Below, piece after piece: positions 5,579-36,523 of a stretch of 64,000 nucleotides of DNA. Both the position numbers and the translations under genes were made by a program. Positions within the stretch are counted from its first letter, which is position 1, and the number at the start of each line of letters is the position of its first letter. Source of the DNA: Anaeromyxobacteraceae bacterium. Lineage in GTDB: Bacteria > Myxococcota > Myxococcia > Myxococcales > Anaeromyxobacteraceae. The DNA is taken from the NCBI GenBank assembly GCA_047602405.1, contig JASGHJ010000002.1:576001-640000 (forward strand), written 5' to 3'. Under the pieces are notes generated by a model. It did no database searches, had not been told where the DNA came from, and was given only the letters and a program-made list of their open reading frames with translations.

Positions 5579-6829
5579 ACCCCGATCCCCCCAGCCCCAG
5601 AGGCTTCCTCGGAGCAGGGGGCGCCCGCAGGCCGACGATCGCTCTTTTGGGGTGAATTCACCCTGCGTGTCGTGGCGTGCGGACCAGGGCGGGGGCGCGT
5701 CGGGCACGCTTCGACCCGAGATCGTTCACATGGGATGGAACGCGAACAGACCACTCCGGCGCCGCCGGAGCAGTCGGTGAGTTTCGGAGGTCGGGCGGCC
5801 CGCGCTAGACAGGCGGGGCGCAGGCGGCGCCGAGCACGGCGCCCATGGCCCAGGTGCCGGGCGGGAACACGACGTTCCACATGCCCTTGCGGAACAGCTC
5901 GAAGGCCTTGCGGTACGCGTCCTGGAACGCCTTCAGCTGCTGCTGCGCCTCGATCCGCTTCCACCGGTCGGACGCCGCGATCTTCGGGTTGAGCTTGCTC
6001 GGCGGTTCCTTCCCGGCCGGATGCTGCCACCACTGCTGCCGGAGCACCCGCCGCAGCCCCGCGAACTTGCGCCGCTCGCCGTCCTCGGTGCGCGCCGCCT
6101 GCTTCTCGAGCGCCGCGAGCGCGCCCTTCACCGACTCGCGGTACCGCTCTGCCGAGAAGCCCTTCGGCGGCACGAGCGCGAGCACGGCGCTGTCGGGCAT
6201 GTTCCCGTCCTTCGAGAAGAACATCTCCGGCCGCTCGTACTCGCGCCCCGTGCCGAGCTCCTCGAACGAGGACCAGAGCCCGGGCCAGTGGCTGCCGTGC
6301 TCGACGAGCCCCGCAGCGACCGGGTTCGCGAGCGTGTAGGCCGCCTTCGCGATGACGGAGCCCTCGTCCTCGAGCGAGACCGCGCTGTAGCTCCCGGGGG
6401 CCCAGGCCGACTCGAAGCGTTCGTGGAGGGTGTTGAGGAAGAGCGCGAGGTTCATGTTCAGCTCCTGGGCGAAGCGCGGGAGCTGGGCGAAGGGGTCGGA
6501 GAGGATCAGGTGGTAGTGGTTGGAGACGACGCACCAGGCGTGAAGCTCGATTCTTGTGTCGCCGGGCGGCGACGGCGAGGAGGTAGCCGAAGGCGTTGTT
6601 GAGCCGCACGGAGGGCACCATCAGGAAGAGCCGGTGCAGGCAACGGCGGGTGAACAGGTAGGTCTTGCCCGGAAGGATTCTGGCGGGGTGCGGTCATGGC
6701 CTCCCGCGCATTCCACGCACCGTGCCGCTCCCAACTCCCTGGATTCCCAGGCCCCCGCCACCCGCACGCCGGCCGTTCCGCGGACCACCGTCCAATCGGC
6801 GGACCTCTGGGGCAGGGGGGGATTGGGGT
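5579..6829. mobile_element. Putative HUH (RAYT/IS200-like) transposase element with imperfect terminal inverted repeats
   Basis: Left ACCCCGATCCCCCCAGCCCCAGAGG (5579-5603) vs reverse complement of 6804-6829 ACCCCAATCCCCCCCTGCCCCAGAGG, enclosing a single HUH transposase gene. Confidence 0.6.
5805..6697 (-). CDS. HUH tyrosine transposase (REP-associated/IS200-like, Y1), interrupted by two +1 frameshifts
   Basis: Reconstructed MTAPRQILPGKTYLFTRRCLHRLFL...IELHAWCVVSNHYHLILSD (HUH)...AAYTLANPVAAGLVE (catalytic Tyr, NPV.AGLV); GGGAGG RBS; extra bases at ~6551 and ~6678. Confidence 0.85.
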
Positions 6830-15588: not shown

Positions 15589-15601
15589 ACGGAGGCTCCC
15601 C

Positions 15602-15646
15602 CCGTTCGCCCCCCGCAGGGCCGCGAGCGGCCCGAAGACGAGGGGC
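15602..15646 (+). repeat. Single degenerate copy of the REP family seen at 34534-34710
   Basis: CCGTTCGCCCC..GCAG-GGCCGC-GA-GCGGCC-CGAAGACGAGGGGC between convergent genes. Confidence 0.75.
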
Positions 15647-15649
15647 GCA

Positions 15650-16501
15650 TCACGGCGCCCCCGGGAACCCCACGTAGGTCTGCCCGAGCCAGGTGAGCTT
15701 GCCGTCCGCGCCGAGGAGGTCGACGGGCCAGGCGGGATCGACCGGGTTCGAGCGTCCGATGAACCACGCGTAGCGGAACACGTCGGCGCGCCCCTCGAGC
15801 AGCGGCACCGCCTCGGCCATGTAGTCGGCCTGCCCCTTCGTCGAGCCCTTCCGCGAGGCCTCGTCGGCGCAGGAGAACTCGGTCAGCCACAGCGGCTTCC
15901 CGTACTTCGCGAACCGGTCGAGGTACCACGAGAGCGCGCCGCCGTAGCAGACGTAGGCGTGCACCGCGAGGTGGTCCACCCGGCAGCCACCGCGCGCGGC
16001 GCAGGCGGCGAAGAACGCGTCGAGCCAGGCGACGGGGTCCGTCTCCCAGCAGGCGCCGCCGCAGTAGTTCACGGCGGGCGCCACGAGCAGGAGGCCGCGG
16101 TCGTCCGCGATCTGCTCGAGGAGCGGCCAGAGGTCGGCCGCTTCCGTCGGGGAGAGGTTCGCCTGCGCGGTCTTGAAGTTGGGCTCGTTGAAGCCGAGGA
16201 GGTACTTCGCGCCGGGCGGGATGGCGGCCTCGATCCCCGGCACGTCGGCCGCGGTGATCTTCCCCCAGACCATGGGCACGAACTCCGCGCCGGCGGGCGC
16301 GGCGCCGGGGTGCGTCGACCAGTTGTAGTACCAGCCCACCTGCGGCCCGAGCGCGTCGGCGTCGGCCTGGCTCGTGAGGTCGTACGCGACGCCGCGCTTC
16401 GTGCCCGCGGCCGGCCGCTCGCCGCCGCCCGCGTCCTTCGAGGCGAGGCGGCAGGCGGGGAGGGTGAGGGCGGCCGTGAGCAGGGCGAGGCGGAGGAGCA
16501 C
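15650..16501 (-). CDS. Glycoside hydrolase family 128-like (beta-1,3-glucanase) lipoprotein
   Basis: Lipobox LPAC; KRGVAY, WYYNW, FVPMVWG, LLGFNEP (acid/base), WLTEF (nucleophile), RYAWF. Confidence 0.85.
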   Translation of the reverse strand: MLLRLALLTAALTLPACRLASKDAGGGERPAAGTKRGVAYDLTSQADADALGPQVGWYYNWSTHPGAAPAGAEFVPMVWGKITAADVPGIEAAIPPGAKYLLGFNEPNFKTAQANLSPTEAADLWPLLEQIADDRGLLLVAPAVNYCGGACWETDPVAWLDAFFAACAARGGCRVDHLAVHAYVCYGGALSWYLDRFAKYGKPLWLTEFSCADEASRKGSTKGQADYMAEAVPLLEGRADVFRYAWFIGRSNPVDPAWPVDLLGADGKLTWLGQTYVGFPGAP

Positions 16502-33340: not shown

Positions 33341-34501
33341 ATGGGTCTGTTCGACATCTTTCGGGGCCGGGGGAAGCTCGAGAAGGCGCTCCGCGAGCTC
33401 GAGGCGGAGGCGCCGGCCGGCGAGGCCCTCCTCGACGAGGGCTCCGCGGACGAAGGAGCGCTCGCGCCGGCTCTCGCCGCGAAGGCCGTGAAGGCCGACG
33501 CCGCGGACGCGCCGGACGCGCGCTACGCGGAGGCGATGGGCGTCGACCCCGCGAGCCTCGGCGCGTCCCCGCCGGCGCTCGACGCGGCCGAGCGCGAGAT
33601 CGCCGGCGCCCTCCTCGAGCACTTCGAGGCGAACCGGCCGGGCCCGGCCTCGTTCCCGGCGATCGCGACCCAGGTGCTCGAGCTCGTGCGCGACCCCGAG
33701 GTGCAGGTGCCCGCCCTGGCGCGCCTCATCGAGGACGATCCCGCGCTCTCGGCCGCGGTCCTCGTGCTCGGCAACTCGGCCCTCTACCGCGGCGTGCAGG
33801 AGCTCCGCACCGTGAAGGAGGCGATCGCGCGGCTCGGGCTCACCGAGGTCGCGCGCATCGCCGCCGCGCTCTCGACGCGCTCGCTCTACCAGGCGGGCGT
33901 CCGCGCCGAGTTCGCCGCGTTCGCGCCGCAGTGGAACCGGCTGTTCTTCCACGCCGCCACGGTGGCGCGGGCGAGCGCCGATCTCGCGAAGGCCCGCCGC
34001 CTCGCCGAGGCGGAGGCGGTCTACCTCGCCGGCATGCTCCACGACGTGGGCAAGTCCCTCGCGCTGCGCTCCCTCGCGGCGCTCACGATCGCGGGCCAGG
34101 TCGAGGTGAAGGACGACGACGCGCTCGAGCGCATCCTGCACCGGGTGCACGTGGAGGTCGGCGGCGCCGCCCACCAGGAGTGGGGCCTGCCCCGGCACCT
34201 CGCCGAGGCCGCGGTGCGCCACCACGACGCCGCGATCCCGCCGGGCCCGGAGCACGCCGGGCTCCACGTCGTCCGGCTCGTCTCCGCGCTGCACCTGCTC
34301 CACGAGCGCCCCGCGCTCCACCCCGACGCCGCCGCCGAGGCCGTCCAGAGCGCCCGCGCGCTCGGCCTCGGCCCGGAGCGGGTCGCCGCGCTCGTGGCCG
34401 CCATCGGCGAGACCGAGGACTGGGTCGCGATGATGTTCGGCGACGCGGGCGGCCCGGCGAGCGCCCCACGCGGCGCCGGAGGGCCGCGCCCGGCGCGGTA
34501 G
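33341..34501 (+). CDS. HDOD domain protein
   Basis: SFPAIA, DPALSAAVL.LGNS, AIARLG, GMLHDVGK, WGLP. Confidence 0.88.
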   Translation: MGLFDIFRGRGKLEKALRELEAEAPAGEALLDEGSADEGALAPALAAKAVKADAADAPDARYAEAMGVDPASLGASPPALDAAEREIAGALLEHFEANRPGPASFPAIATQVLELVRDPEVQVPALARLIEDDPALSAAVLVLGNSALYRGVQELRTVKEAIARLGLTEVARIAAALSTRSLYQAGVRAEFAAFAPQWNRLFFHAATVARASADLAKARRLAEAEAVYLAGMLHDVGKSLALRSLAALTIAGQVEVKDDDALERILHRVHVEVGGAAHQEWGLPRHLAEAAVRHHDAAIPPGPEHAGLHVVRLVSALHLLHERPALHPDAAAEAVQSARALGLGPERVAALVAAIGETEDWVAMMFGDAGGPASAPRGAGGPRPAR

Positions 34502-34533
34502 CCGTCCGGCCCTGGCCGCGCGGGAAGGGCTTC

Positions 34534-34710
34534 TCCGTTCGCCCCGAGCGTAGCCCGCCGCAGGCGGGCGGAGACGAGGGGCCTGGGCCTGGCCCCGAGA
34601 ACATCCGCCGATTCAAGTTACTGATGGTGAATGGTGTCCGTCGCTCGGGGAGGCCAGGGGCGCCCCTCGTCTCCGGGCCGCTGCGCGGCCCTACGCTCGG
34701 GGCGAACGGA
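34534..34710. repeat. Inverted REP doublet (REPIN-like) with GTAG-tagged hairpins
   Basis: TCCGTTCGCCCCGAGCGTAG-[15-nt hairpin]-CGGAGACGAGGGGC at 34534-34582 and inverted at 34662-34710. Confidence 0.85.
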
Positions 34711-34830
34711 TCTTCACGGGCCCGCGCGGAAGGGCGGGTGGCTCCGTCGGGGCGAACGGATCTTCATGGGCCCGCGCGGAAGGGCGGGTGGTCCCGTCGA
34801 GGCGAACGGATCTTCACGGGGCGAACGGAT
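34697..34830. repeat. 50-bp tandem repeat (~2.5 copies) derived from the REP end
   Basis: GGCGAACGGATCTTCAYGGGCCCGCGCGGAAGGGCGGGTGG at 34701 and 34751, partial at 34801 and 34820. Confidence 0.9.
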
Positions 34831-34855
34831 GGACCGCGCCTCGCGCGCCCTGCGC

Positions 34856-36523
34856 TCACCCGCCGCCCGCCAGCAGCTCCGTCTCCTCCGCGTCCGGCTC
34901 GCCGGGGCCGAGGAGGTCCACGCCGTTGCGCGCGAGCCGCGCGGCCGCGGCGGCGGCGCGGCGGGGGCGGCCGGCCTCGAGGCACCACTGCGCGTGCGCG
35001 GCGAGGAGCGCGACCTCGAGCGCGCGGCCGAGCGTGAGCGCGGCGCGCCGCGCACCGGCCTCGAGCGATGGGCCGCGCGCGGCGGCGAGGAACGCCCGGG
35101 CGCGCGCCGCGGCGGCGCGGGCGGCGGCGACCGCCGGCGCGAGCGCGGGGTCGCGCGCCGCGCCGAGCCGGGCCTCGAGCTCGCCCGCGAGCGCCTCGGG
35201 CGCGCCCGGGGTCGCGAGGGCGCGCAGGGCGTCCAGCGAGAGCACGTTCGTCGTGCCCTCCCAGATGGGCAGCACCTGCGCGTCGCGCAGCAGCCGCGGC
35301 ACGCCGGTGTCCTCGACGTAGCCCGCGCCGCCGAAGCACTCGACGACCTCGGAGGCGACCGCCACCGCCTGCTTGCCGGTGGTGAGCTTCGCGAGCGGCG
35401 TGAGCACCCGGAAGAGCGCGCGCTCGGCGTCGCTCGCCTCGCCGCCCTCGACGCGGCCGAGGAGCTCGCCCGCGCGGAACGCGAGCAGGAGCGCCCCCTC
35501 GCGCTCCGCCTCGAGCCCGGCGAGGGTGTCCGCGTGGAGGGGCTTCCCCGCGAGCGGCCCGCCGAACGCGCTGCGGCGGCCGGCGTAGTCGCGCGCCAGC
35601 ATGAGCGCGCGGGTCATGCCGGAGGCGGCGGCGACGGCGTTCCAGGTGCGGGTGACGTTCAGCATGGTCGCGACGTTCCGGACCCCGCCGTCGAGCCCGG
35701 CGACCGGCAGCGCCCGCGCGCCGTCGAGCGTGAGCTCCGCCGTCGGGAGCTTCCTCGTGCCGAGCTTCTCCTTCAGCCGGTTGACGAGGATCCCGTTCGA
35801 GCTGCCGTCCGGGAGCCGGGTCTCGACGTAGAAGAGCGCGAGGCCGCGCGAGCCGGTGGGCGCGCCCTCGGGGCGGGCGAGCGCGAGGGCCATCTCGGAC
35901 GTGGTCGCCGAGGAGAACCACTTCGTGCCGAAGAGGCGCCACCCCTCGCCGTCGCGCCGGGCGACCGTCTCGGTGCCGCCGACGTCCGAGCCGCCGGTGC
36001 GCTCGGTCATCCACTGGCCGCTCGTCCACATCGCCGCGGGATCGCGGGAGGTGAGCCGGGGCACCGCGCGCTCCACGAGGGCCCGGTCCCCGACGTCGAG
36101 GAGCGTCCGGGCCGCGCCGTCGGTCATCGCGAGCGGGCAGGCGTAGACGTCCGTGGACGGGTCGAGCACGTGCACGAGCGCGAGCTGGTGCGTGCGGGAG
36201 CGGGCGCCGTGCCGCCGCTCGTAGGCGGTCGCGACGAGCCCGTGGCGGGCGGCGAGCGCCTGGGCGCGGCGCCAGAGCGGCGTGAGCTCGATGCGGTCGA
36301 CCCGCCGGCCCCAGGGATCCCAGGCCACGAGCGCGGGCTCGAGCGCGCGCTCCGCGAGCTGCTGCTCGAGGAGCGGCCCCGCCGCGAGCGCGCCCAGCTC
36401 CCGCAGCTCGGGCTCGATCCCGAGGAGCTCCTCCGGCGAGAAGGTCCGCGCGAGGAGCTCCCGCAGGAGGGGGTCGGCGTCGTAGGTGTTCGGGAGGCGC
36501 GGCGGCTCCTGGAAGAAGGCCAT
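34856..36523 (-). CDS. Acyl-CoA dehydrogenase, AidB-like
   Basis: CPLAMTDGA, TSGQWMTERTGGSDV, KWFSS, RLKEKLGT, FGGAGYVED, PIWEGTTNV. Confidence 0.92.
   Translation of the reverse strand: MAFFQEPPRLPNTYDADPLLRELLARTFSPEELLGIEPELRELGALAAGPLLEQQLAERALEPALVAWDPWGRRVDRIELTPLWRRAQALAARHGLVATAYERRHGARSRTHQLALVHVLDPSTDVYACPLAMTDGAARTLLDVGDRALVERAVPRLTSRDPAAMWTSGQWMTERTGGSDVGGTETVARRDGEGWRLFGTKWFSSATTSEMALALARPEGAPTGSRGLALFYVETRLPDGSSNGILVNRLKEKLGTRKLPTAELTLDGARALPVAGLDGGVRNVATMLNVTRTWNAVAAASGMTRALMLARDYAGRRSAFGGPLAGKPLHADTLAGLEAEREGALLLAFRAGELLGRVEGGEASDAERALFRVLTPLAKLTTGKQAVAVASEVVECFGGAGYVEDTGVPRLLRDAQVLPIWEGTTNVLSLDALRALATPGAPEALAGELEARLGAARDPALAPAVAAARAAAARARAFLAAARGPSLEAGARRAALTLGRALEVALLAAHAQWCLEAGRPRRAAAAAARLARNGVDLLGPGEPDAEETELLAGGG

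Follow-up and report, generated by a model that had tools for sequence, protein, structure and literature searches.

In the BIME mosaics of E. coli, a conserved linker that is not itself palindromic lies between two palindromes, and tandem arrays occur. As set out in the accessible parts of three papers on REPs, REPINs and RAYT enzymes (PMC3116915, PMC3733652, PMC8266576), REPs are high-copy extragenic hairpins in which GTAG is followed by a stem, and an inverted pair of them forms a long hairpin; 18% of Pseudomonas REPs are singlets (PMC3116915), and HUH enzymes cleave at CT in the vicinity of REPs and carry out strand transfer (PMC8266576). TIRtron/TIRYT elements and REP-less TnpA-Y1 genes of class 2, as far as the available sections of PMC3733652 and PMC6006769 describe them, comprise a RAYT-like gene that has a non-REP motif of its own at its borders; stray copies of this motif occur elsewhere in the genome. 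The most pertinent system for the present locus is that of the Ssn nucleases (SsnA, CDD cd10448) and their NTS/SRM hairpins (Chenal et al. 2025, PMC11893778). In the accessible text of that paper, a single-domain GIY-YIG gene of about 100 aa is bracketed by inverted copies of a hairpin with a defined orientation, which is dispersed in hundreds of copies and has a conserved CG(Y)TC-like 5′ foot, and the cut that SsnA makes in single-stranded DNA lies a few bases upstream of this hairpin. A search of the literature on Ssn since 2025 returned only this founding description.

The element considered here lies in a window (the whole stretch of 64,000 nt that was analyzed, G000:C2:576001-640000) of a 6.16-Mb genome with 74% GC from an Anaeromyxobacteraceae bacterium (the source genome, G000). 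It is probably a mosaic of two repeat families, in which hairpins that bracket a GIY-YIG gene surround a 32-nt motif that borders Y1/HUH genes (Table 1).

Table 1. Features of the element, its neighborhood and the Y1 gene in the same window (window positions).
Feature	Position	Strand	Remarks
Arm A	about 34534-34583	+	long-form G·A-mismatch hairpin
Arm B	about 34661-34710	-	second hairpin copy, inverted
32-nt motif ACRTCYGCCSAWTCAAG-TNAC-N5-GTGAA	34601-34632	+	orphan copy of the flanking motif of RAYT-like genes (Y1/HUH, 'WGG' clade)
Inner inverted repeat, left half	34588-34599	+	locus-specific
Inner inverted repeat, right half	34644-34658	-	locus-specific
Tandem copies, two of 50 nt plus partial ones	34697-34830	+	start at the foot end of arm B
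HDOD-domain gene	33341-34501	+	converges on the element
Acyl-CoA dehydrogenase (AidB-like) gene	34856-36523	-	converges on the element
RAYT-like Y1 gene of the window	5808-6693	-	frameshift near 6553-6570

Architecture of the element and its hairpin family

The two inverted 49-nt arms with identical flanks that the initial annotation had noted are present, inward-facing, at 34534-34582 (+) and 34662-34710 (-), and the stem covariation described there is complete, with four of the six pairs differing between CCCGCC-GCA-GGCGGG and GGCCGC-GCA-GCGGCC, all of them in a compensatory manner. The inner inverted repeat around a core of about 44 nt was likewise found. This core had been called AT-richer and unique; the first is true (50% GC over 44 nt versus 76% in the window), but the second is not, as the core holds the 32-nt genomic repeat. 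What had been missed is an outer stem. In the hairpins of this family, a CCGYT foot is followed by an outer stem of 6 bp, which encloses in turn tandem GA/GA, an internal GTA/GGA and an inner stem with its short loop; in arm A, the foot is CCGTT and the outer stem CGCCCC/GGGGCC, and the tandem GA and the internal GTA/GGA are followed by a 7-bp inner stem that closes a C-GCA-G loop. A copy identical to arm A over 48 nt is located at G000:C2:3618844-3618891. GTAG, which together with the hairpin had been regarded as the signature of a RAYT substrate, starts 16 nt inside the arm, within the outer stem rather than at the foot, and its last G is paired. Because the hairpin is nested, GTAG represents one of three C-GNA-G words per arm instead of a terminal tag. 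DNA hairpins are known to gain stability from sheared G·A pairs and from GNA loops.

The whole 177-nt element folds far better than expected (z = -9.3, with 0 of 200 shuffles equally good), and the 79-nt spacer does not exceed chance (z = -1.3, 22 of 200 shuffles equally good). Single arms are no better folded than shuffles in ViennaRNA, whose model does not cover sheared G·A pairs (z from -0.4 to -1.3), and an Rfam scan of 34300-35000 gave no match near the gathering score. The IHF consensus ends in TTR; the linker here lacks this end, in which it differs from E. coli BIMEs, and the core was rejected as an IHF site for the same reason. A further difference from BIMEs is that linker and palindromes belong here to two different enzyme genes.

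A pattern scan revealed 271 long-form hairpins in the genome versus 2 in 2 Mb of Markov-5 sequence (with an earlier pattern, 293 were counted, compared with 2 in 1.5 Mb of simulated sequence), so that the predicted high copy number was borne out for a structure-conserving, REP-like family of single-strand hairpins. Short forms amount to about 25 copies under a stricter rule, the loose short-form pattern having a high chance rate (100 matches versus 17 in 2 Mb simulated). Inner stems are perfectly paired in 225 of the 271 long-form copies and comprise 54 different sequences, and a C-GNA-G loop is found in 157 of these 225. Among unique inserts of 17 nt, 50 of 63 pair, and among those of 15 nt, 17 of 22 (shuffled mean 3.2 in both cases). 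The outer pairs 1 and 4 switch jointly between C-G and T-A, being paired in 265 and 259 of the 271 copies (177 and 149 when shuffled), a count that is partly circular because the definition of a copy required at least 4 of 6 outer-stem pairs. Conservation of the tag is partial: GTA occupies its position in 210 of 271 copies, but homologous hairpins elsewhere read GAGC-CTG-TCGA or GAGC-GAAG-TCGA, without any GTAG.

At a threshold of 400 nt, 238 of the 271 copies (88%) are singlets, and the remainder form nine pairs (four outward, three direct, two inward) and two arrays; the second inward doublet also encloses a Y1 motif, in decayed form. In addition, a decayed single hairpin was seen at window positions 15601-15650 (G000:C2:591602-591648), and some hairpins are nested in opposite orientation inside the loops of others (G000:C1:60455, 787655, 1148112, 1568036, 1829819). 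Short tandem stutters often begin at a hairpin foot or tail (window 34697-34830; G000:C2:3071850-3071960; C1:1893129-1893591), which suggests repeated local copying beside the hairpin.

The GIY-YIG nuclease gene bracketed by the hairpin

One of the three GIY-YIG matches in the genome is a stand-alone ORF of 102 aa (G000:C1:1892791-1893096; PF01541, E = 3e-15), which is preceded by six hairpins and followed by an inverted one 15 nt past the stop codon, i.e., in the same inward geometry as in the doublet. Its close homologs (E < 1e-20, among 61 genomes of the family) have hairpin flanks in 11 of 11 cases, nine recognized by regex and two short-form ones by eye, with hairpins on both sides in seven; for distant GIY-YIG genes, the count within 200-nt flanks is 0 of 19. 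Across 80 homolog loci drawn from Pseudomonadota, Actinomycetota, Chloroflexota and Bacteroidota, a G·A hairpin was found beside 75 and on both sides, inward, in 53; the far-flank controls yielded 0 and 8, and the reversed ones 1 and 2. At least five exact long-form copies are present in 16 of the 61 genomes, namely in 10 of 11 with a close nuclease and in 6 of 50 without it; the Fisher p of 9e-7 overstates this association because related genomes are not independent. Hairpins without a close nuclease were encountered in two single-contig genomes (G007 with 42, G025 with 59) and two fragmented ones (G041 with 121, G047 with 158), and the former two indicate that the hairpin can be maintained where no close nuclease gene is detectable.

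A GIY-YIG homolog with 95% identity exists in Anaeromyxobacter sp. (L142). The closest relative at the doublet's site, G046, has a second hairpin-bracketed GIY-YIG gene (L141, G046:C12:16000-18000) that is absent from the corresponding place in the source genome, G000:C1:878545-878922, where one hairpin and short tandem repeats are found instead. By analogy with SsnA, the hairpin is likely the single-strand DNA substrate of the nuclease whose gene it brackets. GIY-YIG domains hydrolyze DNA and are not known to carry out strand transfer, so the spread of the hairpin would require host functions.

The gene layout and a CG(Y)TC-like 5′ foot of the hairpin are shared with the Ssn nucleases, and the parallel extends to the protein, as counterparts of Y6, Y17 and E64 of SsnA are present in an alignment to the gonococcal homolog. 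Nevertheless, the G000 protein, whose nearest solved structures are UPF0213 proteins, is only 30-35% identical to eight Ssn-type proteins and falls outside their group. In a 55-row tree built on 99 columns, with its deep forks unresolved, these eight (among them the NTS-flanked gonococcal protein and two rows without a strict SRM match, assigned by sequence) make up a 100/100 group whose branch measures 2.15; the G·A-hairpin proteins do not appear there as one resolved clade. The hairpins differ as well: compared with the SRM hairpin as presented in the accessible text on it, those of G000 contain a nested insert and G·A mismatches in tandem. Matches to the SRM pattern were seen in 0 of the 80 homolog flanks and in 24 of 371 loosely defined copies, 15-nt flanks included, and genome-wide their number is close to background (72 in 6.2 Mb, compared with 20 in 2 Mb of simulated sequence). 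Judging by sequence, the doublet would function in the manner of an Ssn/SRM hairpin pair without belonging to that system, since it belongs with another protein branch and another hairpin. A literature search, mostly of open-access main texts, returned nothing on the G·A-hairpin branch or on its link with a Y1 motif, nor on GTAG palindromes or RAYTs in Anaeromyxobacter or on GIY-YIG enzymes in connection with REPs, and otherwise led to the known REP literature; the tree data in the Ssn supplements could already include this nuclease branch.

The core motif, its Y1/HUH genes and its pairing with hairpins

The 32-nt motif of the core is represented by 24 exact-pattern copies at 19 loci of the genome and by none in 3 Mb of Markov-5 sequence; 18 columns are invariant over 18 aligned copies, and the conserved core, read on the reverse strand, begins with CTTGA. 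Seven of the loci adjoin RAYT-like genes, of which there are three, all in one clade; the other 12 loci are orphan. In the genomes examined, the motif is present at 27 of 30 loci of this Y1 clade, a count that is partly circular because the motif regex was shaped on the same loci, versus 0 of 139 controls (0 of 11, 19, 29 and 80), with 0-3 matches in reversed-sequence controls. It is likely a recognition or end site of these Y1/HUH genes. Variable or foreign cargo in the loop, which the initial annotation had considered possible, was rejected because the core is a repeat within this genome. The proteins of the clade match PF01797 and NF047646 weakly (36-41 bits on NF047646 for both proteins tested, versus a cut-off of 80), and their genes resemble REP-less Y1 class 2 or TIRYT genes. 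PDB searches with two Y1 proteins gave no useful match and none to a solved RAYT, whose GTAG-guide residues are W94/Q95/R104 in E. coli TnpA-REP. In contrast to TIRtron/TIRYT elements as portrayed in the available sections of the respective papers, the motif is a 17-32-nt oriented word, direct or outward-facing, instead of a long TIR with GGGGWSAS; genes between its copies differ, and its stray copies stand beside hairpins of another enzyme. In a second motif subtype (L060, L068, L069, L137, L139), the motif abuts the Y1 start codon, after a promoter-like TACAAT/TACACA, and judging by this position may double as an operator for Y1 self-regulation.

The RAYT-like gene within the window is of a different clade. 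As had been stated, it is not flanked by the repeat, the nearest long hairpin being 5.9 kb away. It has its own inverted ends (CCCCAGAGG / CCTCTGGGG, bounding 5595-6812) and is one of four copies that are about 98% identical (the others at C2:2523914, C2:3257163 and C1:2221346), so that this element appears, by its sequence, to behave like a recently active IS. As a partner of the doublet it was ruled out, since it has its own ends and is linked neither to the hairpins nor to the motif.

The motif often occurs together with a hairpin. An inverted hairpin stands downstream of it at 7 of the 12 orphan loci of G000 (at 12-55 nt in six cases and through a stuttered tail in one), at one Y1-flanking copy, at 3 of 6 motif copies in G046 and at 1 of 3 in G025; in every single-hairpin case, it is both downstream and inverted. 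Overall, the spacing varies from 12 to 66 nt, the spacer sequences being unrelated, and the motif stands alone in genomes without hairpins. In a tandem array at G000:C2:3676051-3677040, seven hairpins and six motifs follow a 157-nt period.

Genes located between motif copies differ at two orthologous loci. G000:C2:1013256-1015119 and its counterpart L276 (G046:C9:195117-196947) share the order motif-gene-motif-Y1 with three direct motif copies, but the enclosed genes, of 296 aa in G000 and 313 aa in G046, are on opposite strands, have no DNA match to each other, and give no match in Pfam. The second locus, G000:C2:1324908-1331434 (after polA) versus L277, has a Y1 gene with outward-facing motifs; in G000, a DUF2019 ORF absent from G046 lies between the Y1 gene and a motif, about 5 kb of additional genes are found only in G000, and a related elongated hairpin is situated on one side of the Y1 gene in G000 and on the other side in G046. 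At one orphan site, two motifs are about 250 nt apart in G000 and about 20 nt in G046. The differing genes at the two Y1 loci, seen in one genome pair, are a lead for HUH-driven cassette exchange. It is conceivable, though rather doubtful, that an HUH (Y1) enzyme uses the core as an att-like site and exchanges cargo genes from one motif to another, in the manner of an integron but without a tyrosine recombinase, with GIY-YIG hairpins serving as landing marks; if so, two single-strand enzymes would cooperate on the doublet as a hybrid substrate.

The same observations bear on an unlikely alternative, according to which a Y1/HUH enzyme mobilizes both parts: it would use GTAG and the inner stem as a REP-like target, join its own motif nearby, and move motif-hairpin units and the inter-motif genes, the GIY-YIG nuclease merely sharing the hairpin. 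The recurrent motif-hairpin geometry at eight G000 loci and four in relatives, the 157-nt array, the hairpins on opposite sides of an orthologous Y1 gene (88 nt upstream in G000, downstream in G046), and the exchanged genes all agree with it, as does the cutting at CT and strand transfer reported in the accessible part of PMC8266576, given the CTTGA start of the motif's reverse strand. Nevertheless, hairpin abundance tracks the GIY-YIG gene and not the Y1 clade (at least five hairpins in 8 of 21 genomes with the clade and in 8 of 40 without, p = 0.14), only 2 of 30 Y1-clade loci have a hairpin close by, about 260 hairpins lack the motif, the short hairpins that flank many nuclease homologs have no GTAG, and the spacing is variable, with unrelated sequence in the spacers.

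A passive pile-up of both repeats in a permissive gap, with hairpins kept as terminators or mRNA stabilizers and no enzyme link, is improbable. The site does lie between convergent genes, the spacing is variable, and 5 of the 12 orphan motifs have no hairpin, but 7 of 12 is far above the crude per-gap rate of 6.5% (100 of 1547; binomial p = 3e-6, and still 7e-4 at 15%), the genome-wide background for a motif followed by an inverted hairpin being 0.46%. The crude ORF caller behind this rate placed 129 of 270 hairpin copies inside over-called ORFs, which makes its intergenic context unreliable, and only the per-gap rate was kept. Moreover, the constant downstream, inverted placement in single-hairpin cases is against accidental accumulation, and the strand-specific C-GNA-G loops fit a fold of one DNA strand better than a terminator.

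Probable stepwise assembly of the site and its significance

Among 30 acyl-CoA dehydrogenase loci examined, the HDOD neighbor is kept in six. In G046, whose protein is 94% identical, the site has one hairpin, nearly identical to arm B, and neither the core, nor arm A, nor the tandem copies at 34697-34830; four more distant syntenic relatives have no hairpin there. The doublet was therefore likely built stepwise, and we infer that arm B is the older arm; alternatively, G046, the single informative orthologue, may have lost arm A and the core. Over 800 kb of G046, a strict match was found at 9 of 28 G000 hairpin sites, and diverged or short forms are present at several of the remaining 19. In both directions between G000 and G046, about ten sites were recognized by eye as clean gaps of one hairpin, with no obvious target duplication; at least 5 of the 16 G046-only matches are false, lying inside genes. 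The presence/absence differences expected by the initial annotation thus exist, but the unit of change between the two genomes is the single hairpin. From this and from the single arm at the orthologous site, we infer that the doublet is not mobilized as a whole, contrary to what had been proposed.

The reading as a classical REPIN, i.e., a GTAG-tagged REP doublet moved whole by a RAYT with variable cargo in its loop, is the least probable of all and is largely refuted by the single-arm orthologue and the excess of singlets (88% versus 18% for Pseudomonas REPs in the accessible part of PMC3116915): the inverted pair does form a long hairpin, GTA is frequent at the tag position and the genome has 11 Y1 genes, but a hairpin is found on one side of one of them and on both sides of none, the bracketed gene being that of the GIY-YIG nuclease, GTAG is internal with its last G paired, the core is a repeat, and the tested Y1 proteins score well below the NF047646 cut-off. 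What survives of the REP/RAYT assignment is that a RAYT-like system is involved at the locus via the core motif; the arms belong to the GIY-YIG-bracketing family.

For the mosaic of GIY-YIG-bracketing hairpins around a Y1 motif, which remains the preferred explanation, the following course may be proposed. As in the SsnA system, the hairpin would fold on exposed single strands, with the outer stem, the sheared G·A pairs, the inner stem and the C-GNA-G loop; the GIY-YIG nuclease would bind it and nick next to the 5′ foot, and single hairpins would then be copied or deleted by host repair or recombination. At the present site, arm B would have been there first, the Y1 motif would have been deposited 30-50 nt past its tail, probably by HUH cut-and-strand-transfer near the hairpin, and arm A would represent a further single gain.

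On this explanation, a GTAG-containing repeat that resembles a RAYT substrate is reassigned to another enzyme class. The 102-aa nuclease and the 50-nt hairpin, with its 54 natural stem variants, make up a candidate enzyme-substrate pair from a branch that is widespread and sister to the Ssn nucleases; a new site-specific cutter of single strands could be obtained from it, and it could bear on the spread of REP-like repeats that have no transposase. Finally, the oriented pairing of motif and hairpin, together with the differing inter-motif genes, makes cross-talk between two single-strand DNA systems testable.
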